From: Eledone cirrhosa
Taxonomy: Eukaryota
DNA length: 64,000 nt
Assembly (NCBI GenBank): GCA_964016885.1
Contig: OZ024754.1
Coordinates: 30,256,001-30,320,000, forward strand
Reading direction: 5' to 3'
Every line of letters starts with the position of its first letter. Position 1 is the stretch's first letter. This document shows positions 3,006 to 64,000 of this stretch, in pieces. The position numbers and the translations under genes were made by a program. The notes under the pieces were generated by a model. The model saw only the letters and a list, made by a program, of their open reading frames with translations. It was not told the DNA's origin and did no database searches.

Positions 3006-3326
3006 TTAATATGTATATATTTATATACATATTAAAACAAATAACGAAACGAAATTAAATTTCGTTTCGTTTGTAACTCACTTTTGTATGACTGACGCTT
3101 AAACAATTAAGTTAAAGATGTACATCCATATATGTATACTGAAATACTAGTATGTATATGAATACACACACGTATACATATGTAGATGTACCAAGTTTTT
3201 TCACTGGTCACTTTACTGTGAGTGGCCAGCTATTCTGTATGTAAACACACAGACAAACCGGTTTTTAGAGTCATACTGGTTTTTGAGGAAACACCTTTCC
3301 TCTATTCTCCAGAAAGCCAGACAAGG

Positions 3327-3371
3327 AATATTGAACTAGTTTCGTTGTTGTTACAACTCATCAGCAATATT
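3327..3371 (-). ncRNA. Minimal type-I hammerhead ribozyme (mirror copy in the left arm)
   Basis: Reverse complement of 3492-3536. Confidence 0.88.
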
Positions 3372-3491
3372 TACCTATCTTCCGGCCTCTCTAGAGAATC
3401 GTAAAAGCACATATCGTTATATAATTTTCATAGAAAAAGCATATAACGATATGTGCTTTTACGATTCTCTAGAGAGGCCGGAAGATAGGTA

Positions 3492-3536
3492 AATATTGCT
3501 GATGAGTTGTAACAACAACGAAACTAGTTCAATATT
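3492..3536 (+). ncRNA. Minimal type-I hammerhead ribozyme
   Basis: AATATTG-CTGATGA-GTTGT(AACA)ACAAC-GAAA-CTAG-TT-CAATATT: 7-bp stem I, 5-bp stem II, palindromic stem III ACTAGT, GUU cleavage triplet. Confidence 0.88.
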
Positions 3537-4014
3537 CCTTGTCTGGCTTTCTGGAGAATAGAGGAAAGGTGTTTCCTCAAAAACCAGTATGACTCTAAAA
3601 ACCGGTTTGTCTGTGTGTTTACATACAGAATAGCTGGCCACTCACAGTAAAGTGACCAGTGAAAAAACTTGGTACATCTACATATGTATACGTGTGTGTA
3701 TTCATATACATACTAGTATTTCAGTATACATATATGGATGTACATCTTTAACTTAATTGTATATACATATTGATAATGCATAAAAATGCTGAAACCGGTA
3801 ATAGACAATTATTAAATATATAAATAGATAAATAAATGCCATTTTTAATTAATAAATAAATCAACTAATACCTTAACATTTCACACAAAGTAAAATATTT
3901 CGTTTTAATCATTTTCTAACCCAGAAAAAAAGAGAGAAAGAAATAAAAAAGGAAAAAAATATATTTTTCTTCCTAATAATCGTCTCTTTCTCCCTCTTTT
4001 CATATATATATATA

Positions 4015-4358
4015 GGCACATGGCTTAGTGGTTAGAGCATTGGCCTTGCAATCGAAAGGTTGTGAGTTCAATTCTCAGACCGGATGATGTGTTGTTTCCT
4101 TGAGCAAGACACTTTATTTCACATTGCTCCAGTTTACTCAGGCTGTAGAAATGAGATGATAGGGACTGGGGTCCCTATCATTCCACTGCAAAGTGGTCGT
4201 GGAGGGGCCGCAGCAAAAAAAGCACCCAGCACTCAATGTAAATGAGGTTGGTGTTAGGAAGGGCTTCCAGCTGTAGAAATCAAGCCAGAATCAGTTCCCG
4301 TCCCACCCTTGCAAGCAGGGAAAAGCGGACGTAAAATGAAATGATGATGATGATGATG
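4015..4358 (+). mobile_element. tRNA-derived SINE family A, full length
   Basis: A box TGGCTTAGTGG, B box GAGTTCAATTC, CORE-like CCTTGAGCAAGACACTT segment, RTE-like 3' tail ending in (GAT)n; six near-identical copies in the window. Confidence 0.9.
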
Positions 4359-11732: not shown

Positions 11733-11840
11733 TAGTGGGAGTAGAAGATCTACTGTGAGGTCAACAGTTTCGGCTTGTTACCTCTTCAGAAGTAACTAAC
11801 TGAAACCACTGAGCTCACAGTAGATCCTCTACTCCCACTA
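11733..11840. repeat. 108-bp fold-back with a hammerhead core at its centre (minus strand)
   Basis: TAGTGGGAGTAGAAGATCTACTGTGAG/CTCACAGTAGATCCTCTACTCCCACTA; minus strand CTGAAGA-GGTAACAAGCC-GAAAC-TGTT at 11789-11763; stem I not formed. Confidence 0.75.
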
Positions 11841-15645: not shown

Positions 15646-16049
<404 letters not shown>

Positions 16050-21991: not shown

Positions 21992-22298
21992 TTCCTGATG
22001 ATTTCCCCCAAATGAAACAGTTCTAGTCCTGTATTATCCATTTCTATATTAAAAATTTACACTCTGCTATGTATTGAATACCTTACATACTGTGGTTACC
22101 CCCGATCGATTGAACTCGGCATACACACACACATATATACATTATATATATATATATATATGGTTCCCCGAGTTGTGAAGGGGTAACCACAGTCTTAAAT
22201 AAGGTACTCAATACGTTGGTAGATTATAGGCATCTTTATCATATATAGGAATGACATTTACAGGACAACTGTTTCATTCGTATGAAATCATCAGGAAT
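21992..22298. mobile_element. Diverged fold-back element with hammerhead-like cores at both outer ends
   Basis: TTCCTGATGATTTC/GAAATCATCAGGAA, ATGAAACAGTT/AACTGTTTCAT, GTATTGAATACCTTA/TAAGGTACTCAATAC, CTGTGGTTACCCC/GGGGTAACCACAG; homologous fragment at 5604-5670. Confidence 0.75.
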
Positions 22299-26204: not shown

Positions 26205-27042
26205 TAAGGCGGGTAAAATTCCCGAGATCCATGGACGAGTTCTCTCCAGCGGTCTCTGTCCCTCATTATCGCTGCCATGTCCTGCGTCTCCAACAGACCA
26301 GTGTCTGTCCTTAGGGCATCAACATACGTTAACCTTGGTCTCCCCTTTTAGTGTGTCCATGTAGGGGCTCCCACAGCAGCACTGAGTGCAGTGTCAACTC
26401 TGGATGTCGGTGAGCATGTCCAGCTAACCTCAGTCTCCTCTGTGTCATTTTTGAGCTGACTTTTGGGATGCTCCCATACAGCTCTGAGTTTTTCATCCTC
26501 AGTGTATACTGATTAATGTTCAGAGCCATCCTCAGCATTCTCGTGTAGCACCCATCCACCATCTGAGTGAGTTTCTTGGTCAGTGTCCAAGTCTCAGACC
26601 CGCACAGCAGCACAGACTCCACTACAGCAATGAAGAGGCGGATTTTCAGGTCTTTACGAAGGTCCGACTTCCACACTGATCTCAAGCTGTGGCACGCCGC
26701 CCAGGCTTTGCTCTTCCTCTCAACCACATCATCTTCCGTATTCTCAATCTTTGCTCCCAAATACAGGAAGCCCTCAACCAATTCTAGCGGCTTCCCGCCT
26801 ACATTAGTGATCCCCTCTAGCTTCTCAACATTCTCTACCAGATATTTTCTTTTAGTCTCATTCATTCTCAGCCCCACACTCATCGACACAGTCTCAACCT
26901 CCCGCATCAAATCCTCTGCTTCCTTCACTGTATTTGTCACCAAAACTATGTCGTCGGCAAATTCAGCATCCGATACCTTTTTCGCCTTAACTCTCCTGCT
27001 CTGAGACGGTGCTACAGTAAAGCCAGAGTCCTGGTGTTTCAT
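26205..27042 (-). mobile_element. 5'-truncated RTE-like LINE family 2 (RT C-terminus and 3' end)
   Basis: ORF 26329-27042 with FADD, GLRMNETK, FLYLG, ESVLLCGSETWTL, RLRLAGH motifs; short (TAGA)n tail. Confidence 0.9.
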
Positions 27043-27189
27043 TATACATTCCTCTACTAATATAAACCCCCTGCCTTCTCTATGTCCTAAACACCTTTAA
27101 TCTGCCAGCTATATTGTATTGCTGAGCCTCCATCAGCTTCAACGATGACTCTTCCAGTATCTCCATGAACAGAACAACCTGCTCGTGAA

Positions 27190-35614: not shown

Positions 35615-38006
35615 ATCATCATCATCATCATCATCATCATCTTCGTTTAACGTTCATCTTCCACGCTAGCATGGGTTAGATGGGAGTTGTCCCACATGAG
35701 GCAAGGTTCGTTGGTTTACTGTGTCTCGCTCATAGAAGACTATCTGGCAGGTTTTCTATGGCTGGATGCCCTTCCTAACACCAACCACATTTACAGTGTG
35801 GACTGGGTACTTTTTACCGTGTTACCTACACGCCCACATTACAACGTGGACTGTGTGTTTTTTTGTTGTGACACCTACACGATCTTGATCTCGATCTCAT
35901 TATCTGCTATGCTTTGACGCATAGAGTTACGGCCCTTGCCATTCTGAGTTCAAATCCCACCGAGGTTAACTTTGCCTTTCATCCTTACGAGGTTGATAAA
36001 ATAAAGTACCAGTAATGTACTGGGTACTTGCTGGCCTTGTGTCAATAGTAGAAACAATTATCTCATTTATTTGGACTTAATGTTGTGGTACCAACTTTAC
36101 AGAGAGAGGGTGGTGTTGGTGGGAGTGGGAGGATAGAGTAGGGGTAGTGGATTGGGGTATATATTTGGTTAAGAGGTGCCTTCTGACTAGGTTTCGCTTT
36201 GTACATAGGCAAGGCGGGTCTTCTGTATTACTGTGTAGCACCAAAGATCTCGATCCAGTGACATTGTCTTAGAGAGGTGAAAGTGTGTAAGGTCGGAATT
36301 TATCAAATCGTCCCAGGTTTTACTGGGCCTACCTACTCCATAACTTCCATCAATTTTGATCGCTCTGCACTTTTTATACAGCTGTCGTCTTTCATGTGCA
36401 TCACATGGCCATACCAATGTAGTCTTCTCTCAAGTAAACAGCATCTGATCCCTCTTATTCCTAATTTCTCACTTAGTTCATTTATGCTTTGCTGTTCACG
36501 TATATTACTATTACACATCCAACGGAGCATGCATGCTTCGTTCCTTTCCAGTCTGCGCAGGTCTTCTGCACGTAATGCCCATCTCTCACTGCCATGTAAC
36601 ATTGTTGTTCGTATACAGGCATCATACAGTCTGCCTTTCATTTTTAGTGAGAAACCTTTTGTGGCCAACAGCGGTATAAGCTCTCTAAACTTTTTCCATC
36701 CCGTTCTGACTCTGGCTACTGTACTTTCAGAACACCCTCCACCACTGCTGACTTTGTCACCCAGGTAACGGAAAGTGTCCACTATTTCTATAGAACCATC
36801 TGGGCAATAGAAGGAGCTAGTATCCTGTGGGCACTTACTACTTATTGCACCTGAGCATCGGCCACATATAAAATCTACATTCTTAGATAGTGATCCCACT
36901 TCATCTTTTATGTACCCATAGTTTGCATTTGGGACATAAAATGGAATTTCTGCCTACTCCTTTCCTACACACTGAGCATGGCCATTTCCTTGAGGGCACC
37001 TGTGCCCTATTTTCCTTTCTACAAACTAGAACTTTAGTCTTAGGCAAGTTAACTTTAAGGCCTTTTGATTCTAGGCCATTCTTCCATGTTTGGGATTTCT
37101 TCTCTAGTTCAGCCATAGATTCAGCTATGAGAGTTAGATCATCTGCGTATAGGAGTTCCCATGCACAGCCAGTCTTAAACTCCTCTGTTATAGCCTGAAG
37201 GGCAATGATAATTAGTAGGGGTCTAAGGACAGAGCCTTGATGAACACCAACTTTTACACTAAATTCTTCACAATATTCATTGTTAATTCTAACCTTACTG
37301 ACTGTTTCTTTATACATAGCTTGTATAGCTCTCACAAGCCATTCATCTACACCTAGTTTTCTAAAAGTCCACCAGATAATGGAGCGGGGACTCCGTCAAA
37401 GGCTTTCTCCAGGTATACAAAAGCTAAGTAGAGGGGTTTACTTTTAGCTAGGTACTTCTCCTGTAGTTGTCGTACAAGGAAAAGAGCGTCTGTGGTACTT
37501 TTACCTGACACAAACCCATCTAGATCAATTCGCTCTCTGATTAGTTGCGCTATAACTCTTTCTGCGACCTTCATGGTCTGGTCAACTAACTTAATGCCTC
37601 TATAGTTTCCCCTATCTAGAGCATCCCCTTTACCCTTGTAGCAGTTAATGATGATGTTGCTACGCCAGTTTTTTGGTATGACCCCATTCTGTATTACTTG
37701 GTTTACTATACGGACGACCATAGTATCTCCCACCATTCCAGATGCCTTCAACATCTCAGCAACTATCTCCGAAGGCCCAGCTGCCTTGCCTGTCTTCATA
37801 TCTTTGATTGCCTTACTTATTATACTACCTTTAACTTGCACCGCTGGTCCTTCTATTGGATCGATTTAAGGCATTCTATCTTTTTCCCATTTATTCTCCT
37901 CATTTTATAGTCTCTCGTAGTGACACTTCCAGGCTATCTTCTTATCAGTATCAGTGAGGGCAAGTACACCATTATCATTACGGACACACTTCTCCTCGAC
38001 AATATC

Positions 38007-41509: not shown

Positions 41510-42670
41510 TGGGAATTCTTGAAAGTGAGAATTCTTGAAAGTGAACGTGCCGAAAGTGACAGATGAAATCTGTGGCTGGAGCAGACCTATTGGCAGGAGG
41601 AGAATAACTTGGTGGTGGAACAGTAAGGTGGAGGAGACAATCAAGGCCAAAAAGCAGGCTTGGAAAGTATCGCAGGAAGGGGGAAGTAGAGAACACTATC
41701 AAGTGGCCAGGAGAGAAGCTAGGAGACAAGTGTACCTTGCAAAAATGGAAGCAGAGGATAGAATGTTCAAGCATGTTCTACAACGTAAGGACCAAAAACG
41801 TGAGGTGTTCAGGATTACTAGACAATGTGTCAAGGAAAATCGTGATATTGTCGGGGAGAAGTGTGTCCATAATGATAATGGTGTTCTTGCCCTCACTGAT
41901 ACTGATAAGAAGGTAGCTTGGAAGTGTCACTACGAGAGACCATTATATGAGGAGAATAAATGGGAAAAAGATAGTCTGCCCCAAATCGATCCAATAGAAG
42001 GACCAGCGGTGCAAGTTAAAGGTAATATAATAAGTAAGGCAATCAAAGATATGAAGACAGGCAAGGCAGCTGGGCCTTCAGAGATAGTTGCTGAGATGTT
42101 GAAGGCATCTGGAATGGTGGGACATACTATGGTCACCCGTATAGTAAACCAAGTAATACAGAACGGGGTCATACCAAAAGACTGGCATAGCAGCATCATC
42201 ATTAACTGCTACAAGGGTAAAGGGGATGCTCTAGATAGGGGAAACTATAGAGGCATTAGGTTAGTTGACCAGGTCATGAAGGTCACAGAAAGAGTTATAG
42301 CGCAACTAATCAGAGAGCAAATTGATCTAGATTTGGGTTTGTGTCAGGTAAAAGTACCACAGACGTTCTTTACCTTGTACGACAACTACAGGAGAAGTAC
42401 CTAGCTAAAAGTAAACCCCTCTACTTAGCTTTTGTATACCTGGAGAAATCCTTTGACAGAATCCCTCGCTCCATTATCTGGTGGGCTCTTAGAAAACTAG
42501 GCTTGTGATAGCTATACAAGCCATGTATAAAGAAACAGTCAGTAAGGTTAGAATTAACAATGAATATTGTGAAGAATTTAGTGTAAAAGTTGGTGTTCAT
42601 CAAGGTTCTGTCCTTAGCCCCCTCCTATTTATTATTGCCCTTCAGGCTATAGCAGAGGAGTTTAAGACCG
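41510..42670 (+). mobile_element. RTE family 1 internal ORF fragment (linker and RT N-terminal half)
   Basis: ORF 41535-42404 with TWWWN, KAAGPSEIVAEMLK, YKGKGDALDRGNYRGI; continues frameshifted to GVHQGSVLSPLLF..EEFKT. Confidence 0.92.
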
Positions 42671-46767: not shown

Positions 46768-48207
46768 GTTTCTTTATTAGCCACAGGGGCACAAAAGAAG
46801 GGGACAAATACAAAGGGGGAAGTTTACATACCATAAAAACGTGTAAAATGTTATCACAAATGCAATTTAAAAAATTAGTCAATTTTCCTCAATAGGGGGA
46901 GACAGTTCATATGGGTAACACATACCCCCGAAAAAATGTGCAACCCTCATCTCCAGGAGTACGAGAGTTTGTACTCTTTTCCTCTCCTCCTCCTTTTCCT
47001 CAACCTACAGGCTGATATAGAGAGAAGGCCCATTCACTCGGGCCATTCTCGCCACTTTCACCCACCTTTCATAAAACTTGCTGGGGTAGCACCTCTCTCT
47101 CCATCCTGATTCTTCTTCCAAAGTGGTATTTGAAAAAAAGAATCAGTTGTTGGCCGGAGAGAAAGGTGTCTGACCTCAGCCCTTTCAACCTTGTCCACCA
47201 TACAACCTCTTTCGCCATAGCTATCACACAAAAGAAAACCACCTCTCCTTCGTTTTTGAAGGAGGGTGGGGGTTTGATCATGACAATGGACTCGGTGGTC
47301 AACCGGATTGGTCCCACCCACGACAATAGTCATTCTACATAGCCCCACAGGTCAGTGATGCCTGGGCAGTGTATGAATGCGTGCGCGACGGTTTCTTCAT
47401 TACGCACGCACCTCGGACAGATCTTTTTTGCAGGGTCCCTGCCCGGACGCCCATGTCTGTAGAGCTTGTCTCGAACTGGTAGAGCTCCTCGGTAGCACTT
47501 CCAGGCCAGGGACTTTTGGAAGTTGTCCATTGGTCCTGGGCGGAAGGTCCTACTGAACAGACTGGCCAGTTCATCTTCCTCTATGCCTAGAGTTTCACCG
47601 AGCGCGTCGTCACACTTGCTGCAGATCAACCCTCTATAGAATGCCGAAGTGGAGTCTCCACTGATCGCCGGGTCCGCCTGCCAGAGGGCTGTGAGCACCT
47701 GAGCACATTCGATGTGCCAGTCGCCCATTTTCCTCAGCATTTGCTTGACCCAGGACTGCAGCTTGGTCAGCGAGACGAGTTGTGGGAAGGCTCGCCTCAT
47801 GAACGGGGCCCACACCGGTTGTCCGGTGAGGAATACGTAGAGATGCCACAGCCTGAGCGCGTGTTTGCGCATCATCAACCACGGCATCCCCAGCCCTCCG
47901 TTAGAAGGGTGTTGGCAGCAGATGGATCTTCTCACCAAAGGAGCCGGCCTCTTCCAAAGGAATTGGAAGAGCGCGCACTCCATTTTGGCGAGCGTTTTGG
48001 CTGGACAAGGCACGACGGTCAAGCGGTAGTAGATGGCGGACGCTATAAAAGTGTTCGCCACCTCCGCTTGACCTTTCAAGGATAGTTTGCACTCGGCCCA
48101 CTTCTGGGTGAGTGCAAACACCTTGGCCGTCACTTCGTTCCAGTTCTTCTCCACCTGGAGGTCTGGACCAAACCAGACCCCGAGCAGCTTTACCGGTCCT
48201 TCCGTCC
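46768..48207 (-). mobile_element. Tx1/L1-clade LINE 3' fragment, copy 2 (ORF2 C-terminus with zf-RVT-type knuckle)
   Basis: ORF 47330-48154: LSLKGQAEVAN, FQFLWK, NGGLGMP, CPRC..EETVAHAFIHC; (GATA)n flanks. Confidence 0.9.
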
Positions 48208-48242
48208 AGATAGATAAATAAATAGATAGATAGATAGATATA

Positions 48243-48288
48243 TTTCTTTATTTGCCACAAGGGCGCACAAGAAAAGGGGACAATACAT
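48243..48288 (-). mobile_element. Tx1/L1-clade LINE extreme 3' stub, copy 3
   Basis: TTCTTTATTTGCCACAAGGGCGCACAAGAAAAGGGGACA matches the 3' termini of copies 1 and 2. Confidence 0.75.
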
Positions 48289-48330: not shown

Positions 48331-48490
48331 GTAGGTAGGTGAAGGGAGGAGAAAATGAATGCAATAGAAAGTAGAAAGAGAGAGAATGGAAAAGAGAGGG
48401 AGGAAGTACAAATTAAAAAATTTCTAGGGTTCCAATTATCTATGATCTTTTGGATCAGAGAGTTCCTGTCATATTGGGTCCTGGTTGGTA

Positions 48491-51400
48491 TCAGCTACCT
48501 AAGACCTCTCTCTCATTCCCACTGATGTCAGTTGATTAAGGTCTCTCTCTCATTCCCACTGATGTCAGCTGACTAAGGTCTCTCTCTCATTCCCACTGAT
48601 GTCAGCTGACTAAGGTCTCTCTCTCATTCCCACTGATGTCAGCTGACTAAGGTCTCTCTCTCATTCCCACTGATGTCAGCTGACTAAGGTCTCTCCCTCA
48701 TTCCCACTGATGTCAGCTGACTAAGGTCTCTCTCTCATTCCCACTGATGTCAGCTGACTAAGGTCTCTCTCTCATTCCCACTGATGTCAGCTGACTAAGG
48801 TCTCTCTCTCATTCCCACTGATGTCAGTTGATTAAGGTCTCTCTCTCATTCCCACTGATGTCAGTTGATTAAGGTCTCTCTCTCATTCCCACTGATGTCA
48901 GCTGACTAAGGTCTCTCTCTCATTCCCACTGATGTCAGTTGATTAAGGTCTCTCTCTCATTCTCACTGATGTCAGCTGACTAAGGTCTCTCTCTCATTCC
49001 CACTGATGTCAGCTGACTAAGGCCTCTCTCACATTCCCACTGATGTCAGCTGACTAAGGTCTCTCTCTCATTCCCACTGATGTCAGCTGACTAAGGTCTC
49101 TCTCTCATTCCCACTGATGTCAGCTGACTAAGGTCTCTCTCTCATTCCCACTGATGTCAGCTGACTAAGGCCTCTCTCTGATTCCCACTGATGTCAGCTG
49201 ACTAAGGCCTCTCTCTCATTCCCACTGATGTCAGCTGACTAAGGTCTCTCTCTCATTCCCACTGATGTCAGCTGACTAAGGCCTTTCTCTCATTCCAACT
49301 GATGTCAGCTGACTAAGGCCTCTCTCTCATTCCCACTGATGTCAGCTGACTAAGACCTCTCTCTCATTCCCACTGATGTCAGCTGACTAAGGCCTCTCTC
49401 TCATTCCCACTGATGTCAGCTGACTAAGGCCTTTCTCTCATTCCACTGATGTCAGCTGACTAAGGTCTCTCTCTCATTCCCACTGATGTCAGCTGACTAA
49501 GGTCTCTGTCTCATTCCCACTGATGTCAGCTGACTAACGCCTTTCTCTCATTCCCACTGATGTCAGCTGACTAAGGTCACCCTCTCATTCCCACTGATGT
49601 CAGCTGACTAAGGTCTCTCTCTCATTCCCACTGATGTCAGCTGACTAAGGTCTCTCTCTCATTCCCACTGATGTCAGCTGACTAAGGCCTTTCTCTCATT
49701 CCACTGATGTCAGCTGACTAAGGTCTCTCTCTCATTCCCACTGATGTCAGCTGACTAACGCCTTTCTCTCATTCCCACTGATGTCAGCTGACTAAGGTCA
49801 CCCTCTCATTCCCACTGATGTCAGCTGACTAAGGTCTCTCTCTCATTCCCACTGATGTCAGCTGACTAAGGTCTCTCTCTCATTCCCACTGATGTCAGCT
49901 GACTAAGGCCTTTCTCTCATTCCCACTGATGTTAGCTGACTAAGGCCTTTCTCTCATTCCCACTGATGTTAGCTGACTAAGACCTCTCTCTCATTCCCAC
50001 TGATGTCAGCTGACTAAGTCCTCTCTCTCATTCCCACTGATGTCAGCTGACTAAGGTCTCTCTCTCATTCCCACTGATGTCAGCTGACTAAGGTCTCTCT
50101 CTCATTCCCACTGATGTCAGCTGACTAAGGCCTTTCTCTCATTCCCACTGATGTTAGCTGACTAAGTCCTCTCTCTCATTCCCACTGATGTCAGCTGACT
50201 AAGGCCTTTCTCTCATTCCCACTGATGTCAGCTGACTAAGGCCTTTCTCTCATTCCCACTGATGTCAGCTGACTAAGGTCTCTCTCTCATTCCCACTGAT
50301 GTCAGCTGACTAAGGTCTCTCTCTCATTCCCACTGATGTCAGCTGACTAAGGCCTTTCTCTCATTCCCACTGATGTTAGCTGACTAAGTCCTCTCTCTCA
50401 TTCCCACTGATGTCAGCTGACTAAGGCCTTTCTCTCATTCCCACTGATGTCAGCTGACTAAGGCCTTTCTCTCATTCCCACTGATGTCAGCTGACTAAGG
50501 TCTCTCTCTCATTCCCACTGATGTCAGCTGACTAAGGCCTCTCTCTCATTCCCACTGATGTCAGCTGACTAAGGCCTTTCCCTCATTCCCACTGATGTCA
50601 GCTGACTAAGGTCTCTCTCTCATTCCCACTGATGTCAGCTGACTAAGGCCTTTCTCTCATTCCCACTGATGTCAGCTGACTAAGGTCTCTCTCTCATTCC
50701 CACTGATGTCAGCTGACTAAGGCCTTTCTCTCATTCCCACTGATGTCAGCTGACTAAGGTCTCTCTCTCATTCCCACTGATGTCAGCTGACTAAGGTCTC
50801 TCTCTCATTCCCACTGAAGTCAGCTGACTAAGGTCTCTCTCTCATTCCCACTGATGTCAGCTGACTAAGGTCTCTCTCTCATTCCCACTGATGTCAGCTG
50901 ACTAAGGCCTCTCTCTCATTCCCACTGATGTCAGCTGACTAAGGCCTTTCTCTCATTCCCACTGATGTCAGCTGACTAAGGTCTCTCTCTCATTCCCACT
51001 GATGTCAGCTGACTAAGGCCTTTCTCTCATTCCCACTGATGTCAGCTGACTAAGGTCTCTCTCTCATTCCCACTGATGTCAGCTGACTAAGGCCTTTCTC
51101 TCATTCCCACTGATGTCAGCTGACTAAGGTCTCTCTCTCATTCCCACTGATGTCAGCTGACTAAGGCCTCTCTCTCATTCCCACTGATGTCAGCTGACTA
51201 AGGCCTTTCTCTCATTCCCACTGATGTCGGCTGACTAAGTTCTCTCTCTCATTCCCACTGATGTCAGCTGACTAAGGTCTCTCTCTCATTCCCACTGATG
51301 TCAGCTGACTAATGTCTCTCTCTCATTCCCACTGATGTCAGCTGACTAAGGCCTTTCTTTCATTCCCACTGATATCAGCTGACTAAGGTCTCTCTCTCAT

Positions 51401-54400
51401 TCCCACTGATGTCAGCTGACTAAGGCCTTTCTCTCATCCCCACTGATGTCAGCTGACTAAGGTCTCTCTCTCATTCCCACTGATGTCAGCTGACTAAGGC
51501 CTCTCTCTCATTCCCACTGATGTCAGCTGACTAAGGCCTCTCTCTCATTCTCACTGATGTCAGCTGACTAAGACCTCTCTCTCATTCCCACTGAAGTCAG
51601 CTGACTAAGACCTCTCTCTCATTCCCACTGATGTCAGCTGACTAAGGCCTCTCTCTCATTCCCACTGATGTCAACTGACTAAGGCCTTTCTCTCATTCCC
51701 ACTGAAGTCAGCTGACTAAGACCTCTCTCTCATTCCCACTGATGTCAGCTGACTAAGGCCTCTCTCTCATTCCCACTGATGTGAGCTGACTAAGGCCTTT
51801 CTCTCATTCCCACTGATGTCAGCTGACTAAGGCCTTTCTCTCATTCCCACTGATGTCAGCTGACTAAGGTCTCTCTCTCATTCCCACTGATGTCAGCTGA
51901 CTAAGGCCTTTCTCTCATTCCCACTGATGTCAGCTGACTAAGGCCTCTCTCTCATTCCCACTGATGTCAGCTGACTAAGGTCTCTCTCTCATTCCCAACT
52001 GATGTCAGCTGACTAAGACCTCTCTCTCATTCCCACTGATGTCAGCTGACTAAGACCTTTCTCTCATTCCCACTGATGTCAGCTGACTAAGGCCTCTCTC
52101 TCATTCGCACTGATGTCAGCTGACTAAGGCCTCTCTCTCATTCCCACTGATGTCAGCTGACTAAGGTCTTTCTCTCATTCCCACTGATGCCAGCTGACTA
52201 AGATCTCTCTCTCATTCCCACTGATGTCAGCTGACTAAGGTCTCTCTCTCATTCCCACTGATGTCAGCTGACTAAGGCCTTTCTCTCATTCCCACTGATG
52301 TCAGCTGACTAAGGCCTCTCTCTCATTCCCAATGATGTCACCTGACTAAGGCCTCTCTCTCATTCCCACTGATTTCAGCTGACTAAGGCCTCTCTCTCAT
52401 TCCCACTGATGTCAGCTGACTAAGGCCTTTCTCTCATTCCACTGATGTCAGCTGACTAAGGTCTCTGTCTCATTCCCACTGATGTCAGCTGACTAACGCC
52501 TTTCTCTCATTCCCACTGATGTCAGCTGACTAAGGTCTCTCTCTCATTCCCACTGATGTCAGCTGACTAAGGTCTCTCTCTCATTCCCACTGATGTCAGC
52601 TGACTAAGGCCTTTCTCTCATTCCCACTGATGTCAGCTGACTAAGGCCTCTCTCTCATTCCCACTGATGTCAGCTGACTAAGGCCTCTCTCTCATTCCCA
52701 CTGATGTCAGCTGACTAAGGTCTCTCTCTCATTCCCACTGATGTCAGCTGACTAAGGCCTTTCTCTCATTCCCACTGATGTTAGCTGACTGAGTCCTCTC
52801 TCTCATTCCCACTGATGTCAGCTGACTAAGGTCTCTCTCTCATTCCCACTGATGTCAGCTGACTAATGTCTCTCTCTTATTCCTACTGATGTCAGCTGAC
52901 TAAGGCCTCTCTCTCATTCCCACTGATGTCAGCTGACTAAGGCCTCTCTCTCATTCCCACTGATGTCAGCTGACTAAGGTCTCTCTCTCATTCCCACTGA
53001 TGTCAGCTGACTAAGGCCTTTCTCTCATTCCCGCTGATGTTAGCTGACTAAGGCCTCTCTCTCATTCCCACTGATGTCAGCTGACTAAGGTCTCTCTCTC
53101 ATTCCCACTGATGTCAGCTGACTAAGGCCTTTCTCTCATTCCCACTGATGTTAGCTGACTAAGGTCTCTCTGTCATTCCCACTGATGTCAGCTGACTAAG
53201 ACCTCTCTCTCATTCCCACTGATGTCAGCTGACTAAGGTCTCTCTCTCATTCCCACTGATGTCAGCTGACTAAGGTCTCTCTCTCATTCCCACTGATGTC
53301 AGCTGACTAAGGTCTCTCTCTCATTCCCACTGATGTCAGCTGACTAAGGTCTCTCTCTCATTCTCACTGATGTTAGCTGACTAAGGCCTCTCTCTCATTC
53401 CCACTGATGTCAGCTGACTAAGGTCTCTCTCTCATTCCCACTGATGTCAGCTGACTAAGGTCTCTCTCTCATTCCCATGATGTCAGCTGACTAAGGTCTC
53501 TCTCTCATTCCCACTGATGTCAGCTGACTAAGGTCTCTCTCTCATTCCCACTGATGTCAGCTGACTAAGGCCTTTCTCTCATTCCCACTGATGTCAGCTG
53601 ACTAAGGTCTCTCTCTCATTCCCACTGATGTCAGCTGACTAAGGCCTCTCTCTCATTCCCACTGATGTCAGCTGACTAAGGCCTTTCTCTCATTCCCACT
53701 GATGTCAGCTGACTAAGGTCTCTCTCTCATTCCCACTGATGTCAGCTGACTAAGGCCTTTCTCTCATTCCCACTGATGTCAGCTGACTAAGGTCTCTCTC
53801 TCATTCCCACTGATGTCAGCTGACTAAGGCCTTTCTCTCATTCCCACTGATGTCAGCTGACTAAGGTCTCTCTCTCATTCCCACTGATGTCAGCTGACTA
53901 AGGCCTCTCTCTCATTCCCACTGATGTCAGCTGACTAAGGCCTTTCTCTCATTCCCACTGATGTCAGCTGACTAAGGTCTCTCTCTCATTCCCACTGATG
54001 TCAGCTGACTAAGGTCTCTCTCTCATTCTCACTGATGTTAGCTGACTAAGGCCTCTCTCTCATTCCCACTGATGTCAGCTGACTAAGGTCTCTCTCTCAT
54101 TCCCACTGATGTCAGCTGACTAAGGTCTCTCTCTCATTCCCACTGATGTCAGCTGACTAAGGTCTCTCTCTCATTCCCACTGAAGTCAGCTGACTAAGGT
54201 CTCTCTCTCATTCCCACTGATGTCAGCTGACTAAGGCCTCTCTCTCATTCCCACTGATGTCAGCTGACTAAGGCCTCTCTCTCATTCCCACTGATGTCAG
54301 CTGACTAAGGTCTCTCTCTCATTCCCACTGATGTCAGCTGACTAAGGCCTTTCTCTCATTCCCACTGATGTTAGCTGACTAAGGCCTCTCTCTCATTCCC

Positions 54401-57400
54401 ACTGATGTCAGCTGACTAAGGTCTCTCTCTCATTCCCACTGATGTCAGCTGACTAAGGCCTTTCTCTCATTCCCACTGATGTTAGCTGACTAAGGTCTCT
54501 CTGTCATTCCCACTGATGTCAGCTGACTAAGGTCTCTCTCTCATTCCCACTGATGTCAGCTGACTAAGGTCTCTCTCTCATTCCCACTGATGTCAGCTGA
54601 CTAAGGTCTCTCTCTCATTCCCACTGATGTCAGCTGACTAAGGTCTCTCTCTCATTCTCACTGATGTTAGCTGACTAAGGCCTCTCTCTCATTCCCACTG
54701 ATGTCAGCTGACTAAGGTCTCTCTCTCATTCCCACTGATGTCAGCTGACTAAGGTCTCTCTGTCATTCCCACTGATGTCAGCTGACTAAGGTCTCTCTCT
54801 CATTCCCACTGATGTCAGCTGACTAAGGTCTCTCTCTCATTCCCACTGATGTCAGCTGACTAAGGCCTTTCTCTCATTCCCACTGATGTCAGCTGACTAA
54901 GACCTCTCTCTCATTCCCACTGATGTCAGCTGACTAAGGTCTCTCTCTCATTCCCACTGATGTCAGCTGACTAAGGCCTTTCTCTCATTCCCACTGATGT
55001 CAGCTGACTAAGACCTCTCTGTCATTCCCACTGATGTCAGCTGACTAAGGTCTCTCTGTCATTCCCACTGATGTCAGCTGACTAAGGTCTCTCTCTCATT
55101 CCCACTGATGTCAGCTGACTAAGATCTCTCTCTCATTCCCACTGATGTCAGCTGACTAAGGTCTCTCTCTCATTCTCACTGATGTTAGCTGACTAAGGCC
55201 TCTCTCTCATTCCCACTGATGTCAGCTGACTAAGGTCTCTCTCTCATTCCCACTGATGTCAGCTGACTAAGGTCTCTCTCTCATTCCCACTGATGTCACC
55301 TGACTAAGGTCTCTCTCTCATTCCCACTGATGTCAGCTGACTAAGGTCTCTCTCTCATTCCCACTGATGTCAGCTGACTAAGGCCTTTCTCTCATTCCCA
55401 CTGATGTCAGCTGACTAAGGTCTCTCTCTCATTCCCACTGATGTCAGCTGACTAAGGCCTCTCTCTCATTCCCACTGATGTCAGCTGACTAAGGCCTTTC
55501 TCTCATTCCCACTGATGTCAGCTGACTAAGGTCTCTCTCTCATTCCCACTGATGTCAGCTGACTAAGGCCTTTCTCTCATTCCCACTGATGTCAGCTGAC
55601 TAAGGTCTCTCTCTCATTCCCACTGATGTCAGCTGACTAAGGCCTTTCTCTCATTCCCACTGATGTCAGCTGACTAAGGTCTCTCTCTCATTCCCACTGA
55701 TGTCAGCTGACTAAGGCCTCTCTCTCATTCCCACTGATGTCAGCTGATTAAGGCCTTTCTCTCATTCCCACTGATGTCAGCTGACTAAGGTCTCTCTCTC
55801 ATTCCCACTGATGTCAGCTGACTAAGGTCTCTCTCTCATTCCCACTGATGTCAGCTGACTAAGGCCTTTCTCTCATTCCCACTGAAGTCAGCTGACTAAG
55901 GTCTCTCTCTCATTCCCACTGATGTCAGCTGACTAAGGTCTCTCTCTCATTCCCACTGATGTCAGCTGACTAAGATCTCTCTCTCATTCCCACTGATGTC
56001 AGCTGACTAAGGTCTCTCTCTCATTCTCACTGATGTTAGCTGACTAAGGCCTCTCTCTCATTCCCACTGATGTCAGCTGACTAAGGTCTCTCTCTCATTC
56101 CCACTGATGTCAGCTGACTAAGGTCTCTCTCTCATTCCCACTGATGTCAGCTGACTAAGGTCTCTCTCTCATTCCCACTGATGTCAGCTGACTAAGGTCT
56201 CTCTCTCATTCCCACTGATGTCAGCTGACTAAGGTCTCTCTCTCATTCCCACTGAAGTCAGCTGACTAAGGTCTCTCTCTCATTCCCACTGATGTCAGCT
56301 GACTAAGGCCTCTCTCTCATTCCCACTGATGTCAGCTGACTAAGGCCTCTCTCTCATTCCCACTGATGTCAGCTGACTAAGGTCTCTCTCTCATTCCCAC
56401 TGATGTCAGCTGACTAAGGTCTCTCTCTCATTCCCACTGATGTCAGCTGACTAAGATCTCTCTCTCATTCCCACTGATGTCAGCTGACTAAGGTCTCTCT
56501 CTCATTCCCACTGATGTCAGCTGACTAAGGTCTCTCTCTCATTCCCACTGATGTCAGCTGACTAAGGTCTCTCTCTCATTCCCACTGAAGTCAGCTGACT
56601 AAGGTCTCTCTCTCATTCCCACTGATGTCAGCTGACTAAGGCCTCTCTCTCATTCCCACTGATGTCAGCTGACTAAGGCCTCTCTCTCATTCCCACTGAT
56701 GTCAGCTGACTAAGGTCTCTCTCTCATTCCCACTGATGTCAGCTGACTAAGGCCTTTCTCTCATTCCCACTGATGTTAGCTGACTAAGGCCTCTCTCTCA
56801 TTCCCACTGATGTCAGCTGACTAAGGTCTCTCTCTCATTCCCACTGATGTCAGCTGACTAAGGCCTTTCTCTCATTCCCACTGATGTTAGCTGACTAAGG
56901 TCTCTCTGTCATTCCCACTGATGTCAGCTGACTAAGGTCTCTCTCTCATTCCCACTGATGTCAGCTGACTAAGGTCTCTCTCTCATTCCCACTGATGTCA
57001 GCTGACTAAGGTCTCTCTCTCATTCCCACTGATGTCAGCTGACTAAGGTCTCTCTCTCATTCTCACTGATGTTAGCTGACTAAGGCCTCTCTCTCATTCC
57101 CACTGATGTGAGCTGACTAAGGTCTCTCTCTCATTCCCACTGATGTCAGCTGACTAAGGTCTCTCTCTCATTCCCACTGATGTCAGCTGACTAAGGTCTC
57201 TCTCTCATTCCCACTGATGTCAGCTGACTAAGGTCTCTCTCTCATTCCCACTGATGTCAGCTGACTAAGGCCTTTCTCTCATTCCCACTGATGTCAGCTG
57301 ACTAAGACCTCTCTCTCATTCCCACTGATGTCAGCTGACTAAGGTCTCTCTCTCATTCCCACTGATGTCAGCTGACTAAGGCCTTTCTCTCATTCCCACT

Positions 57401-60400
57401 GATGTCAGCTGACTAAGACCTCTCTGTCATTCCCACTGATGTCAGCTGACTAAGGTCTCTCTGTCATTCCCACTGATGTCAGCTGACTAAGGTCTCTCTC
57501 TCATTCCCACTGATGTCAGCTGACTAAGATCTCTCTCTCATTCCCACTGATGTCAGCTGACTAAGGTCTCTCTCTCATTCTCACTGATGTTAGCTGACTA
57601 AGGCCTCTCTCTCATTCCCACTGATGTCAGCTGACTAAGGTCTCTCTCTCATTCCCACTGATGTCAGCTGACTAAGGTCTCTCTCTCATTCCCACTGATG
57701 TCACCTGACTAAGGTCTCTCTCTCATTCCCACTGATGTCAGCTGACTAAGGTCTCTCTCTCATTCCCACTGATGTCAGCTGACTAAGGCCTTTCTCTCAT
57801 TCCCACTGATGTCAGCTGACTAAGGTCTCTCTCTCATTCCCACTGATGTCAGCTGACTAAGGCCTCTCTCTCATTCCCACTGATGTCAGCTGACTAAGGC
57901 CTTTCTCTCATTCCCACTGATGTCAGCTGACTAAGGTCTCTCTCTCATTCCCACTGATGTCAGCTGACTAAGGCCTTTCTCTCATTCCCACTGATGTCAG
58001 CTGACTAAGGTCTCTCTCTCATTCCCACTGATGTCAGCTGACTAAGGCCTTTCTCTCATTCCCACTGATGTCAGCTGACTAAGGTCTCTCTCTCATTCCC
58101 ACTGATGTCAGCTGACTAAGGCCTCTCTCTCATTCCCACTGATGTCAGCTGATTAAGGCCTTTCTCTCATTCCCACTGATGTCAGCTGACTAAGGTCTCT
58201 CTCTCATTCCCACTGATGTCAGCTGACTAAGGTCTCTCTCTCATTCCCACTGATGTCAGCTGACTAAGGCCTTTCTCTCATTCCCACTGAAGTCAGCTGA
58301 CTAAGGTCTCTCTCTCATTCCCACTGATGTCAGCTGACTAAGGTCTCTCTCTCATTCCCACTGATGTCAGCTGACTAAGATCTCTCTCTCATTCCCACTG
58401 ATGTCAGCTGACTAAGGTCTCTCTCTCATTCTCACTGATGTTAGCTGACTAAGGCCTCTCTCTCATTCCCACTGATGTTAGCTGACTAAGGTCTCTCTCT
58501 CATTCCCACTGATGTCAGCTGACTAAGGTCTCTCTCTCATTCCCACTGATGTCAGCTGACTAAGGCCTTTCTCTCATTCCCACTGATGTCAGCTGACTAA
58601 GGTCTCTCTCTCATTCCCACTGATGTCAGCTGACTAAGGCCTCTCTCTCATTCCCACTGATGTCAGCTGACTAAGGCCTTTCTCTCATTCCCACTGATGT
58701 CAGCTGACTAAGGTCTCTCTCTCATTCCCACTGATGTCAGCTGACTAAGGCCTTTCTCTCATTCCCACTGATGTCAGCTGACTAAGGTCTCTCTCTCATT
58801 CCCACTGATGTCAGCTGACTAAGGCCTTTCTCTCATTCCCACTGATGTCAGCTGACTAAGGTCTCTCTCTCATTCCCACTGATGTCAGCTGACTAAGGCC
58901 TCTCTCTCATTCCCACTGATGTCAGCTGATTAAGGCCTTTCTCTCATTCCCACTGATGTCAGCTGACTAAGGTCTCTCTCTCATTCCCACTGATGTCAGC
59001 TGACTAAGGTCTCTCTCTCATTCCCACTGATGTCAGCTGACTAAGGCCTTTCTCTCATTCCCACTGAAGTCAGCTGACTAAGGTCTCTCTCTCATTCCCA
59101 CTGATGTCAGCTGACTAAGGTCTCTCTCTCATTCCCACTGATGTCAGCTGACTAAGGCCTCTCTCTCATTCCCACTGATGTCAGCTGACTAAGGCCTCTC
59201 TCTCATTCCCACTGATGTCGGCTGACTAAGGCCTCTCTCTCATTCCCACAGATGTCAGCTGACTAAGACCTCTCTCTCATTCCCACTGATGTCAGCTGAC
59301 TAAGACCTCTCTCTCATTCCCACTGATGTCAGCTGACTAAGGCCTCTCTCTCATTCCCACTGATGTCAGCTGACTAAGGCCTCTCTCTCATTCCCACTGA
59401 TGTCAGCTGACTAAGACCTTTCTCTCATTCCCACTGATGTCAGCTGACTAAGGCCTCTCTCTCATTCCCACTGATGTCAGCTGACTGAGGCCTTTCTCTC
59501 ATTCCCACTGATGTCAGCTGACTAAGGCCCTTCTCTCATTCCCACTGATGTCAGCTGACTAAGGCCTCTCTCTCATTCCCACTGATGTCAGCTGACTAAG
59601 GTCTTTCTCTCATTCCCACTGATGTCATCTGACTAAGACCTCTCTCACATTCCCACTGATGTCAGCTGACTAAGACCTCTCTCTCATTCCCACTGATGTC
59701 AGCTGACTAAGGCCTCTCTCTCATTCCCACTGATGTCAGCTGACTAAGGCCTTTCTCTCATTCCCACTGATGTCAGCTGACTAAGGCCTCTCTCTCATTC
59801 CCACTGATGTCAGCTGACTAAGGCCTCTCTCTCATTCCCACTGATGTCAGCTGACTAAGGCCTTTCTCTCATTCCCACTGATGTCAGCTGACTAAGGCCT
59901 CTCTCTCATTCCCACTGATGTCGGCTGACTAAGGCCTCTCTCTCATTCCCACTGATGTCAGCTGACTAAGACCTCTCTCTCATTCCCACTGATGTCAGCT
60001 GACTAAGACCTCTCTCTCATTCCCACTGATGTCAGCTGACTAAGGCCTCTCTCTCATTCCCACTGATGTCAGCTGACTAAGGCCTCTCTCTCATTCCCAC
60101 TGATGTCAGCTGACTAAGGCCTTTCTCTCATTCCCACTGATGTCAGCTGACTAAGGTCTCTCTCTCATTCCCACTGATGTCAGCTGACTAAGGCCTTTCT
60201 CTCATTCCCACTGATGTTAGCTGACTAAGGCCTCTCTCTCATTCCCACTGATGTCAGCTGACTAAGGTCTCTCTCTCATTCCCACTGATGTCAGCTGACT
60301 AAGGCCTTTCTCTCATTCCCACTGATGTTAGCTGACTAAGGTCTCTCTGTCATTCCCACTGATGTCAGCTGACTAAGGTCTCTCTCTCATTCCCACTGAT

Positions 60401-63400
60401 GTCAGCTGACTAAGGTCTCTCTCTCATTCCCACTGATGTCAGCTGACTAAGGTCTCTCTCTCATTCCCACTGATGTCAGCTGACTAAGGTCTCTCTCTCA
60501 TTCTCACTGATGTTAGCTGACTAAGGCCTCTCTCTCATTCCCACTGATGTCAGCTGACTAAGGCCTTTCTCTCATTCCCACTGATGTCAGCTGACTAAGA
60601 CCTCTCTCTCATTCCCACTGATGTCAGCTGACTAAGGTCTCTCTCTCATTCCCACTGATGTCAGCTGACTAAGGTCTCTCTCTCATTCCCACTGATGTCA
60701 GCTGACTAAGGTCTCTCTCTCATTCCCACTGATGTCAGCTGACTAAGGTCTCTCTCTCATTCCCACTGATGTCAGCTGACTAAGGCCTTTCTCTCATTCC
60801 CACTGATGTCAGCTGACTAAGACCTCTCTCTCATTCCCACTGATGTCAGCTGACTAAGGTCTCTCTCTCATTCCCACTGATGTCAGCTGACTAAGGTCTC
60901 TCTCTCATTCCCACTGATGTCAGCTGACTAAGGTCTCTCTCTCATTCTCACTGATGTTAGCTGACTAAGGCCTCTCTCTCATTCCCACTGATGTCAGCTG
61001 ACTAAGGTCTCTCTCTCATTCCCACTGATGTCAGCTGACTAAGGTCTCTCTGTCATTCCCACTGATGTCAGCTGACTAAGGTCTCTCTCTCATTCCCACT
61101 GATGTCAGCTGACTAAGGTCTCTCTCTCATTCCCACTGATGTCAGCTGACTAAGGCCTTTCTCTCATTCCCACTGATGTCAGCTGACTAAGACCTCTCTC
61201 TCATTCCCACTGATGTCAGCTGACTAAGGTCTCTCTCTCATTCCCACTGATGTCAGCTGACTAAGGCCTTTCTCTCATTCCCACTGATGTCAGCTGACTA
61301 AGACCTCTCTGTCATTCCCACTGATGTCAGCTGACTAAGGTCTCTCTGTCATTCCCACTGATGTCAGCTGACTAAGGTCTCTCTCTCATTCCCACTGATG
61401 TCAGCTGACTAAGATCTCTCTCTCATTCCCACTGATGTCAGCTGACTAAGGTCTCTCTCTCATTCTCACTGATGTTAGCTGACTAAGGCCTCTCTCTCAT
61501 TCCCACTGATGTCAGCTGACTAAGGTCTCTCTCTCATTCCCACTGATGTCAGCTGACTAAGGTCTCTCTCTCATTCCCACTGATGTCACCTGACTAAGGT
61601 CTCTCTCTCATTCCCACTGATGTCAGCTGACTAAGGTCTCTCTCTCATTCCCACTGATGTCAGCTGACTAAGGCCTTTCTCTCATTCCCACTGATGTCAG
61701 CTGACTAAGGTCTCTCTCTCATTCCCACTGATGTCAGCTGACTAAGGCCTCTCTCTCATTCCCACTGATGTCAGCTGACTAAGGCCTTTCTCTCATTCCC
61801 ACTGATGTCAGCTGACTAAGGTCTCTCTCTCATTCCCACTGATGTCAGCTGACTAAGGCCTTTCTCTCATTCCCACTGATGTCAGCTGACTAAGGTCTCT
61901 CTCTCATTCCCACTGATGTCAGCTGACTAAGGCCTTTCTCTCATTCCCACTGATGTCAGCTGACTAAGGTCTCTCTCTCATTCCCACTGATGTCAGCTGA
62001 CTAAGGCCTCTCTCTCATTCCCACTGATGTCAGCTGATTAAGGCCTTTCTCTCATTCCCACTGATGTCAGCTGACTAAGGTCTCTCTCTCATTCCCACTG
62101 ATGTCAGCTGACTAAGGTCTCTCTCTCATTCCCACTGATGTCAGCTGACTAAGGCCTTTCTCTCATTCCCACTGAAGTCAGCTGACTAAGGTCTCTCTCT
62201 CATTCCCACTGATGTCAGCTGACTAAGGTCTCTCTCTCATTCCCACTGATGTCAGCTGACTAAGATCTCTCTCTCATTCCCACTGATGTCAGCTGACTAA
62301 GGTCTCTCTCTCATTCTCACTGATGTTAGCTGACTAAGGCCTCTCTCTCATTCCCACTGATGTCAGCTGACTAAGGTCTCTCTCTCATTCCCACTGATGT
62401 CAGCTGACTAAGGTCTCTCTCTCATTCCCACTGATGTCAGCTGACTAAGGTCTCTCTCTCATTCCCACTGATGTCAGCTGACTAAGGTCTCTCTCTCATT
62501 CCCACTGATGTCAGCTGACTAAGGTCTCTCTCTCATTCCCACTGAAGTCAGCTGACTAAGGTCTCTCTCTCATTCCCACTGATGTCAGCTGACTAAGGCC
62601 TCTCTCTCATTCCCACTGATGTCAGCTGACTAAGGCCTCTCTCTCATTCCCACTGATGTCAGCTGACTAAGGTCTCTCTCTCATTCCCACTGATGTCAGC
62701 TGACTAAGGTCTCTCTCTCATTCCCACTGATGTCAGCTGACTAAGATCTCTCTCTCATTCCCACTGATGTCAGCTGACTAAGGTCTCTCTCTCATTCCCA
62801 CTGATGTCAGCTGACTAAGGTCTCTCTCTCATTCCCACTGATGTCAGCTGACTAAGGTCTCTCTCTCATTCCCACTGAAGTCAGCTGACTAAGGTCTCTC
62901 TCTCATTCCCACTGATGTCAGCTGACTAAGGCCTCTCTCTCATTCCCACTGATGTCAGCTGACTAAGGCCTCTCTCTCATTCCCACTGATGTCAGCTGAC
63001 TAAGGTCTCTCTCTCATTCCCACTGATGTCAGCTGACTAAGGCCTTTCTCTCATTCCCACTGATGTTAGCTGACTAAGGCCTCTCTCTCATTCCCACTGA
63101 TGTCAGCTGACTAAGGTCTCTCTCTCATTCCCACTGATGTCAGCTGACTAAGGCCTTTCTCTCATTCCCACTGATGTTAGCTGACTAAGGTCTCTCTGTC
63201 ATTCCCACTGATGTCAGCTGACTAAGGTCTCTCTCTCATTCCCACTGATGTCAGCTGACTAAGGTCTCTCTCTCATTCCCACTGATGTCAGCTGACTAAG
63301 GTCTCTCTCTCATTCCCACTGATGTCAGCTGACTAAGGTCTCTCTCTCATTCTCACTGATGTTAGCTGACTAAGGCCTCTCTCTCATTCCCACTGATGTG

Positions 63401-64000
63401 AGCTGACTAAGGTCTCTCTCTCATTCCCACTGATGTCAGCTGACTAAGGTCTCTCTCTCATTCCCACTGATGTCAGCTGACTAAGGTCTCTCTCTCATTC
63501 CCACTGATGTCAGCTGACTAAGGTCTCTCTCTCATTCCCACTGATGTCAGCTGACTAAGGCCTTTCTCTCATTCCCACTGATGTCAGCTGACTAAGACCT
63601 CTCTCTCATTCCCACTGATGTCAGCTGACTAAGGTCTCTCTCTCATTCCCACTGATGTCAGCTGACTAAGGCCTTTCTCTCATTCCCACTGATGTCAGCT
63701 GACTAAGACCTCTCTGTCATTCCCACTGATGTCAGCTGACTAAGGTCTCTCTGTCATTCCCACTGATGTCAGCTGACTAAGGTCTCTCTCTCATTCCCAC
63801 TGATGTCAGCTGACTAAGATCTCTCTCTCATTCCCACTGATGTCAGCTGACTAAGGTCTCTCTCTCATTCCCACTGATGTCAGCTGACTAAGATCTCTCT
63901 CTCATTCCCACTGATGTCAGCTGACTAAGGTCTCTCTCTCATTCTCACTGATGTTAGCTGACTAAGGCCTCTCTCTCATTCCCACTGATGTCAGCTGACT
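48491..64000. repeat. 37-bp satellite array, about 420 units, running off the window
   Basis: Unit GGTCTCTCTCTCATTCCCACTGATGTCAGCTGACTAA with GGTCTC/GGCCTC/GGCCTT/GACCTC variants; internal palindrome GTCAGCTGAC. Confidence 0.98.

Follow-up and report, generated by a model that had tools for sequence, protein, structure and literature searches.

The locus considered here raises the question of why an almost perfect palindrome in the genome of Eledone cirrhosa should carry a hammerhead ribozyme on each of its strands. It lies in a window (the whole stretch of DNA analysed, 64,000 nucleotides on contig C14), and the assembly searched comprises 3.0 Gb. A sequence-only reading had described a palindrome of 658 bp as a young, non-coding mobile unit related to Penelope-like elements (PLEs). 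Its geometry was found to be exact, with 3103-3422 and 3441-3760 being reverse complements at 320 of 320 positions around an 18-nt centre, in which four A-T pairs are flanked by 4 mismatched positions. However, the palindrome is not the mobile unit. The element is a 726-bp head-to-head insertion (3034-3759) in which two pieces of a tandemly repeated, non-coding 468-bp monomer, both truncated at the 5' end, are joined (Table 1), and the 34-mer across its junction occurs once in the genome. The locus is real and explained, and it is ordinary for this genome: 38 of 69 two-arm insertions in the samples, a majority, bear a hammerhead on both strands.

The insertion reaches 69 bp farther to the left than the palindrome, and its target site duplication (TSD) flanks the whole of it, palindrome and tail included. 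Monomer positions are given on a natural unit from another chromosome (L025), position 1 of which corresponds to window position 3494. The arms are identical where they mirror each other and each differs from this unit by one A within a run, which agrees with the young age proposed earlier. Because the arms are truncated at different points (monomer 397 and 416), 19 nt apart, the apparent "loop" of the palindrome, and these 19 nt as a whole, are found in the right arm only. The left TSD forms half of a 26-bp palindrome (3008-3033, with 12-bp arms around TT), and a small hairpin may thus have served as the target.

Table 1. Features of the insertion and its immediate neighbour, in window coordinates.
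Feature	Position	Strand	Remarks
Target site duplication, left copy, 12 bp	3022..3033	+	TATATACATATT
Left (long-end) arm, 389 bp	3034..3422	-	monomer 416-468, then 1-338; 3' end = long site
Tail, 69 bp, without mirror partner	3034..3102	-	monomer 269-338
Hairpin inside the 69-bp tail	3043-3071		monomer 300-328
Perfect palindrome, left half	3103..3422	-	
Type-I hammerhead, minus	3327..3371	-	HH9 3311-3382; mirror of plus copy; predicted cut after 3334 (minus-strand reading)
Head-to-head junction	3422		unique in genome
Right (short-end) arm, 338 bp	3422..3759	+	monomer 397-468, then 1-267; 3' end = short site
Centre "loop", imperfectly self-complementary	3423..3440	+	monomer 398-415
Perfect palindrome, right half	3441..3760	+	
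Type-I hammerhead, plus	3492..3536	+	core CUGAUGA 3499-3505 and GAAA 3520-3523; distal helix I ~3483-3544; palindromic ACUAGU; predicted cut after 3529
Target site duplication, right copy, 12 bp	3760..3771	+	TATATACATATT
Adjacent sequence, outside the element: pLTR (3' end) of a Penelope-like family with RT+GIY-YIG	3770..4014	+	94-95% like L097 and L061 ends

Each arm contains all the elements of a hammerhead, namely stem I (AAUAUUG/CAAUAUU), CUGAUGA, stem II (GUUGU-AACA-ACAAC), GAAA, ACUAGU and a GUU triplet. The Rfam model HH9 was matched by Infernal on either strand with 37.7 bits, which is below its gathering score of 52 (E 6.1e-6 for 64 kb and 2.1e-8 for 220 nt). In this alignment a stem I of 6 bp is followed by an internal loop and then by a distal helix. 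The full hammerhead per arm claimed previously is therefore present, but its label as "minimal" is doubtful, and on the model alignment the ribozyme looks canonical, with a distal helix I as in HH9. Rfam miRNA matches in the window were dismissed as noise from TA repeats.

The stems were found to covary among genomic copies, as the hammerhead assignment implied. Across 37 variants (26 recurrent and 11 sister singles, from 70), 7 of the 15 hammerhead pairs are altered on both sides and 95.5% of cells are paired, compared with 35-49% in slid controls; the core letters were fixed by the search pattern, making core invariance uninformative. This support comes from few independent lineages, and pair-count shuffles reached the observed level in 50/500 and 58/500. 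Sister families have lost the first pair of stem II. Loop sequences are kept between families with different stems, which also casts doubt on a minimal hammerhead. The cleavage triplet is GUC, GUU or GUA across the variants, with GUU in the youngest subfamily and GUC in older ones. Hammerheads with a GUU triplet are slower.

Folding of the monomer gave a z of -9.0, and as a circle it is predicted to fold at -151 kcal/mol; in this fold a small hairpin has the short end in its loop, and the long end comes directly after the tail hairpin. Two copies are predicted to co-fold as a double hammerhead through ACUAGU (-32.4 vs -29.0 kcal/mol). The competition between self-cleavage and double-stranded RNA that had been envisaged for the palindrome holds on paper, with a predicted -113 kcal/mol for the hammerhead and its own antisense against -14.5 kcal/mol for the hammerhead alone. 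In a read-through transcript the antisense arm precedes the ribozyme, which would therefore be caught in the hairpin; a transcript starting at the palindrome centre would escape this. This arrangement is likely a by-product of insertion and not a design.

The 41-nt ribozyme core has 4,898 exact matches in the genome (0 for the control), mostly spaced at 465-468 bp. Of the 27 clusters formed by the first 100 core matches listed, 11 are divergent (minus-then-plus) pairs and 0 are convergent. The unit of the family is the 468-bp monomer, which forms direct tandem arrays of up to 20 or more units (individual units of 462-470 bp), while the locus in the window holds less than one unit per strand. 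The repeat is non-coding, as had been supposed, with a longest stop-free frame of 65 codons in the monomer dimer, and tblastn for PLE proteins gave no match in window 1-48000. A looser hammerhead pattern had 30,212 sister-family matches (2 for the control), and sister monomers of 424 and 502 bp align end to end with the 468-bp monomer and use the two equivalent end sites. Sister retrozyme families (L130-L159; C3:12.27-12.30 Mb) have units of 420-540 bp, one array exceeding 35 units.

In the youngest arrays the same unit variant occurs on both arms; at C1:30.83 Mb all units are identical, and the nearest other locus has 3 differences. Unit variants recur in some arrays (L161, L220 and one arm of C1:56.39 Mb), and such patterns point to multimeric templates or later expansion over a pure rolling circle. 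The array at C1:56.39 Mb (L046, 11+11 units) shows a period-3 variant pattern on one arm that is missing from the other, which suggests that a block was duplicated once the insertion was in place or that the pattern comes from the assembly.

Judged by its sequence features, the 468-bp repeat is a non-LTR retrozyme with a Penelope-like insertion signature, for which cleavage and a circular form are predicted; no RNA run was among the sequencing runs listed for the sequence. It has tandem monomers, a type-I hammerhead in each unit, no coding capacity, a TSD of more than 4 bp and no LTR-retrozyme layout (PBS/PPT being left out of this comparison). Its insertions are of the PLE type, consisting of inverted, 5'-truncated head-to-head copies with a tail at one end, placed in AT-rich or microsatellite targets with a TSD. 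It has no RT or GIY-YIG ORF between pLTRs and does not qualify as an autonomous PLE. A MITE or foldback DNA transposon was rejected on the unique junction, unequal ends and variable centres. The description of the locus as mobile, hammerhead-bearing and linked to Penelope is upheld.

Arms of the family were found to end at two fixed sites approximately 70 nt apart. The long end (~monomer 340, followed by A or T) has 2,677 genome matches, and the short end (266-271) has 821 forward-strand matches under a stricter pattern, whose reverse-strand count is too high owing to overlapping matches. In a first sample anchored on the long end (60 loci, of which 1 unaligned and 1 duplicate were dropped, leaving 58), the opposite end was short in 42 (37 arms, 5 stubs) and long in 0, with no arm in 10, an interrupted arm in 3 and 3 that ran off. 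Twenty short-anchored loci, selected partly to avoid already-paired ends, had a long opposite end in 10, a short one in 1 and none in 7, with 2 unresolved. A second sample gave 27 short, 1 long, 12 absent and 5 unresolved opposite ends for 45 long-anchored loci, and 2 long, 1 short, 4 absent and 2 unresolved for nine short-anchored loci. Mixed long and short ends are present in 81 of the 84 resolved two-arm insertions (96%; P 5e-21 against the 50% ceiling for independent choice). Like ends occur in 3/84, two of which look compound, and no inverted arm was present at 33 of the 132 aligned sampled loci.

Sixty nine simple two-arm insertions were compared further. Their arms have medians of 531 and 508 bp with uncorrelated lengths (rho 0.07), either arm can be much the longer one, and central junctions vary from locus to locus. 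A palindromic arm of at least 300 bp is present in 37/69, a (TA)5 or longer run adjoins 66/69, and the junction has an overlap of 1-9 nt in 37/69. Most other insertion sites are pure TA, with the TSD unreadable; among 47 resolved loci surveyed, 17 have a duplicated string of 12-38 nt that is not pure TA, most being too repetitive to trust. The cleavage site is crossed by 152 of 204 arms (88/125 and 64/79), from which it follows that the templates were circles or uncut multimers. An apparent pile-up of 5' ends at monomer 33-63, such as cleaved templates would leave at the ribozyme cut site (18/125, post hoc P 0.0007, scan-corrected 0.19) was discarded after a preset test on a fresh sample gave 5/79 against 5.1 expected. 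A scheme in which the long-site cDNA runs into the short site is not favoured, short arms being about equally common on either side.

The family is very probably a Penelope-mobilised hammerhead repeat, and with good confidence the 726-bp insertion can be ascribed to non-LTR retrozyme pieces placed by a trans-acting Penelope-like RT/GIY-YIG protein through twin target-primed reverse transcription. Such a protein would nick both strands of a TA-rich site ~12 bp apart, and both DNA 3' ends would prime cDNA on the repeat RNA, one from the long site (~340) and the other from the short site (266-271). The cDNAs would stop at unrelated lengths and their 3' ends would be joined head to head where a few bases are complementary. 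The duplication would derive from the 12-bp stagger, and the tail from the 70 nt that separate the start sites. Both arms of this locus are long enough to include the ribozyme, which accounts for a hammerhead on each strand. The window copy, with less than one unit per strand, is likely a dead end.

Separate priming of both arms on RNA is considered fairly probable. In its simplest form one protein dimer would hold a single tandem or circular RNA. A share of 96% mixed ends speaks for a single asymmetric complex, the simplest version being a dimer bound to one RNA, but the rule could also result if two RNAs were loaded one after the other. One RNA with one dimer is favoured by a small margin over an even chance. 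Transcripts of tandem arrays would be cut by the ribozyme to monomers, probably as double hammerheads, and the monomers would then circularise; a circular template is judged an evenly balanced proposition. The combined picture, extended to animal retrozymes, is put forward tentatively, at somewhat less than an even chance: a Penelope-like dimer would grip a single circular retrozyme RNA at two fixed sites, separated by 70 nt, and copy from both cut DNA ends simultaneously. If true, the rule of one long and one short end would be a genomic readout of an asymmetric Penelope-like complex, and the PLE tail and head-to-head inversion would be explained jointly, linking retrozymes to the PLE machinery mechanistically and beyond co-occurrence. 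Counting against the main reading are the absence of a pLTR-sharing helper among those searched, the 33/132 loci without an inverted arm, the 3/84 like ends, the recurrent array patterns, the failed 5'-pile-up test, the small number of lineages behind the covariation and the HH9 score under its gathering threshold, as well as the finding that the start site is the same for both strands in vitro (PMC11167929).

An improbable alternative to separate priming is that one target-primed cDNA folds back and self-primes the second arm, the tail arising as the endonuclease resolves the intermediate; self-priming was suggested in PMC3846280 and resolution in PMC8557442. Arm lengths are compatible with this in 48/69 insertions, and 8/69 junctions are near-symmetric (truncation points no more than 5 nt apart, 1.6 expected, a count inflated by BLAST extension into hairpins), mostly with self-complementary overlaps of 8-29 nt. 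However, same-sense cDNAs anneal only at self-complementary motifs, so symmetric junctions are explained without folding back too, and such copying is impossible in either direction for 21/69 insertions. The insertion in the window is incompatible by the same length rule (monomer 397-415 is in the right arm and missing in the left), and either arm can be far longer. It is rather unlikely that linear read-through transcripts of genomic arrays spread the repeat, which would then be what remains of a Penelope pLTR, with a weak or idle ribozyme, no circle and arrays growing as satellite DNA. Periodic variant patterns in arrays, the lack of a cleavage-site pile-up of 5' ends and the change from GUC in older subfamilies to GUU in the youngest are in keeping with it, as are the 8/9 Xenopus retrozyme dimers uncleaved in vitro (10.64898/2026.07.22.740005) and the dispensability of the PAc ribozyme for insertion (PMC11167929). 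Against these stand the compensatory stem changes within and between families, the highly structured monomer with paired ends, and young arrays with identical units on both arms. Twin priming, as in the main reading, could operate on this linear route too.

That the palindrome itself is functional, as a foldback element or a selected switch between cleavage and dsRNA, is very improbable. Its perfect 320-bp arms, the predicted fold of its read-through RNA (-584 kcal/mol) and the TSD around the whole would suit such a unit, but its junction is found nowhere else, the centres differ at every locus, the arms are unequal and, because of the tail, the outer ends are not inverted repeats. A chimeric read or assembly artefact is hardly credible. 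No public contig listed spanned the junction with 31 nt on each side, and none excluded it (short-read contigs from 6 runs, possibly of another individual), but a fold-back read would mirror the flanks, which here are distinct and unique, and the locus has a 12-bp TSD, a 69-bp tail and 19 nt in one arm only; 81 loci, with identities of 84-100%, are built in the same way.

With regard to a helper, the genome was found to contain at least 7 PLE families with RT and GIY-YIG, five of which have a CxxxxCxxC motif before the endonuclease, as known in Neptune and Nematis (PMC8557442). The linked Penelope RT/GIY-YIG ORF suggested earlier did not emerge from the partial helper search: no autonomous PLE with the pLTR of the 468-bp repeat was present among the 150 scored of 10,595 GIY-YIG candidates, and all that 50 GIY-YIG loci and the pLTRs of the 7 PLE families yielded was nested neighbours and matches to TA repeats. 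No autonomous partner was seen among 30 loci fetched from 55 off-pattern ones (mostly indel variants) given by an exclusion pattern, nor among 30 fetched from 299 matches to alternative-stem hammerheads. Two loci (L002, 1016-1839; L176, 300-2770) have the repeat head to head with 5'-truncated fragments, GIY-YIG or RT, from two different PLE families; a shared TSD was not seen at either, they were rejected as pointers to a partner, and their joints may reflect template switching or nested insertion. Open PLE frames of 1096 and 938 codons with RT and GIY-YIG are present at L080:1775-5062 and L081:4309-7122, respectively, the former having inverted ends and, by eye, a tail of ~38 nt.

Animal non-LTR retrozymes share with this family non-coding tandem monomers with a type-I hammerhead per unit, low GC, thousands of copies, a TSD of more than 4 bp, a strongly structured monomer and PLEs in the same genome. 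The monomer is 468 bp here, compared with 150-450 bp in Cervera and de la Pena 2020 (PMC7229834), who described retrozymes, their circles, PLEs as candidate helpers and an efficiently cleaved coral monomer, and 51-972 bp in Li et al. 2026 (10.64898/2026.07.22.740005), in which retrozymes are regarded as PLE derivatives and 1/9 was cleaved. Cleavage and circles are demonstrated for retrozymes of other species in these two studies and predicted for the E. cirrhosa repeat. PLE mobilisation of retrozymes has so far been argued there from shared ribozymes, co-occurrence and pLTR trees; the word "inverted" does not occur in the main text of PMC7229834, and the available text of neither study gives a tail or two fixed ends.

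With endonuclease-bearing PLEs the family shares head-to-head inversion, junction overlap, a one-end tail, a TSD of ~10 bp, microsatellite or AT-rich targets and two start sites (PMC3846280; PMC8557442; PMC11167929); a stem-loop is predicted at the short one. An inverted pLTR with a 15-bp overlap, a 31-bp tail and an 8-10-bp TSD has been reported, head-to-head being the commonest arrangement (PMC3846280), as have non-autonomous head-to-tail PLEs and a tail often at one end, with the mechanism of inversion left open (PMC8557442). For PAc both strands are cut and extended, two start sites bound the tail and a dimer is predicted (PMC11167929). The 468-bp repeat differs in having no ORF and a tail of ~70 nt in place of 30-40 nt, and the tail, given as optional in the available descriptions of PLEs, is here at exactly one end in 81/84. 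Cervera and de la Pena 2014 (PMC4209133) found, in PLE remnants of Schistosoma, opposite-strand hammerhead pairs 100-700 bp apart with a palindromic helix III, put forward a dimer model and proposed circles; the spacing, helix and dimer model are shared, but those are minimal hammerheads at the end of a 3-kb element, whereas the Eledone repeat is a tandem monomer with a longer, canonical-like helix I.

In L1 twin priming both target ends prime cDNA and the inversion junction shows microcomplementarity, the second priming site being variable and the pieces not mutually repeated. In the 468-bp repeat, by contrast, both sites are fixed and the arms mirror each other because the template repeats. 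No account of the family or of a quantified end-pairing rule was found in the open literature, though subscription papers, older PLE reviews among them, may state the rule.

The useful part of the finding is the family, which is very young and non-coding, has ~2,700 countable ends and shows every part of the PLE signature, together with strict pairing of its ends that sister families keep. It offers a handle on PLE integration and retrozyme mobilisation: the PLE system already established in vitro could be given the 468-nt RNA as substrate, with a clear-cut outcome predicted. In addition, dsRNA or fragile DNA could arise from the long perfect palindromes, of which there are hundreds.

Several other features were observed in the window. 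The Penelope-like family ending at 3770-4014 (L097, L061, L212) is also inserted as inverted pairs, and its pLTR contains a hammerhead-like motif with a palindromic ACCGGT and a U3-A8 core variant, the latter known from PMC4209133. An older second insertion of the 468-bp repeat (94-96%) lies at 15646-15907, with a minus arm of monomer 266-95 and a plus arm of 51-132, interrupted by TA runs. Motifs of the form CUGAUGA...GAAA occur in unrelated repeats at 21995 (+), 22294 (-) and 13768 (-), the first two in facing orientation at a distance of 300 bp, and are candidates only; a further match at 11789 lies inside a 90-nt hairpin and is probably no ribozyme. Several LINE-like RT fragments and a SINE head, presumably tRNA-like, are spread over 4015-4330, 26332-27096, 36336-37865, 41529-42401 and 47333-48247, and 48375-64000 is occupied by a satellite with a 37-bp unit in ~410 copies, mostly 95-98% alike.
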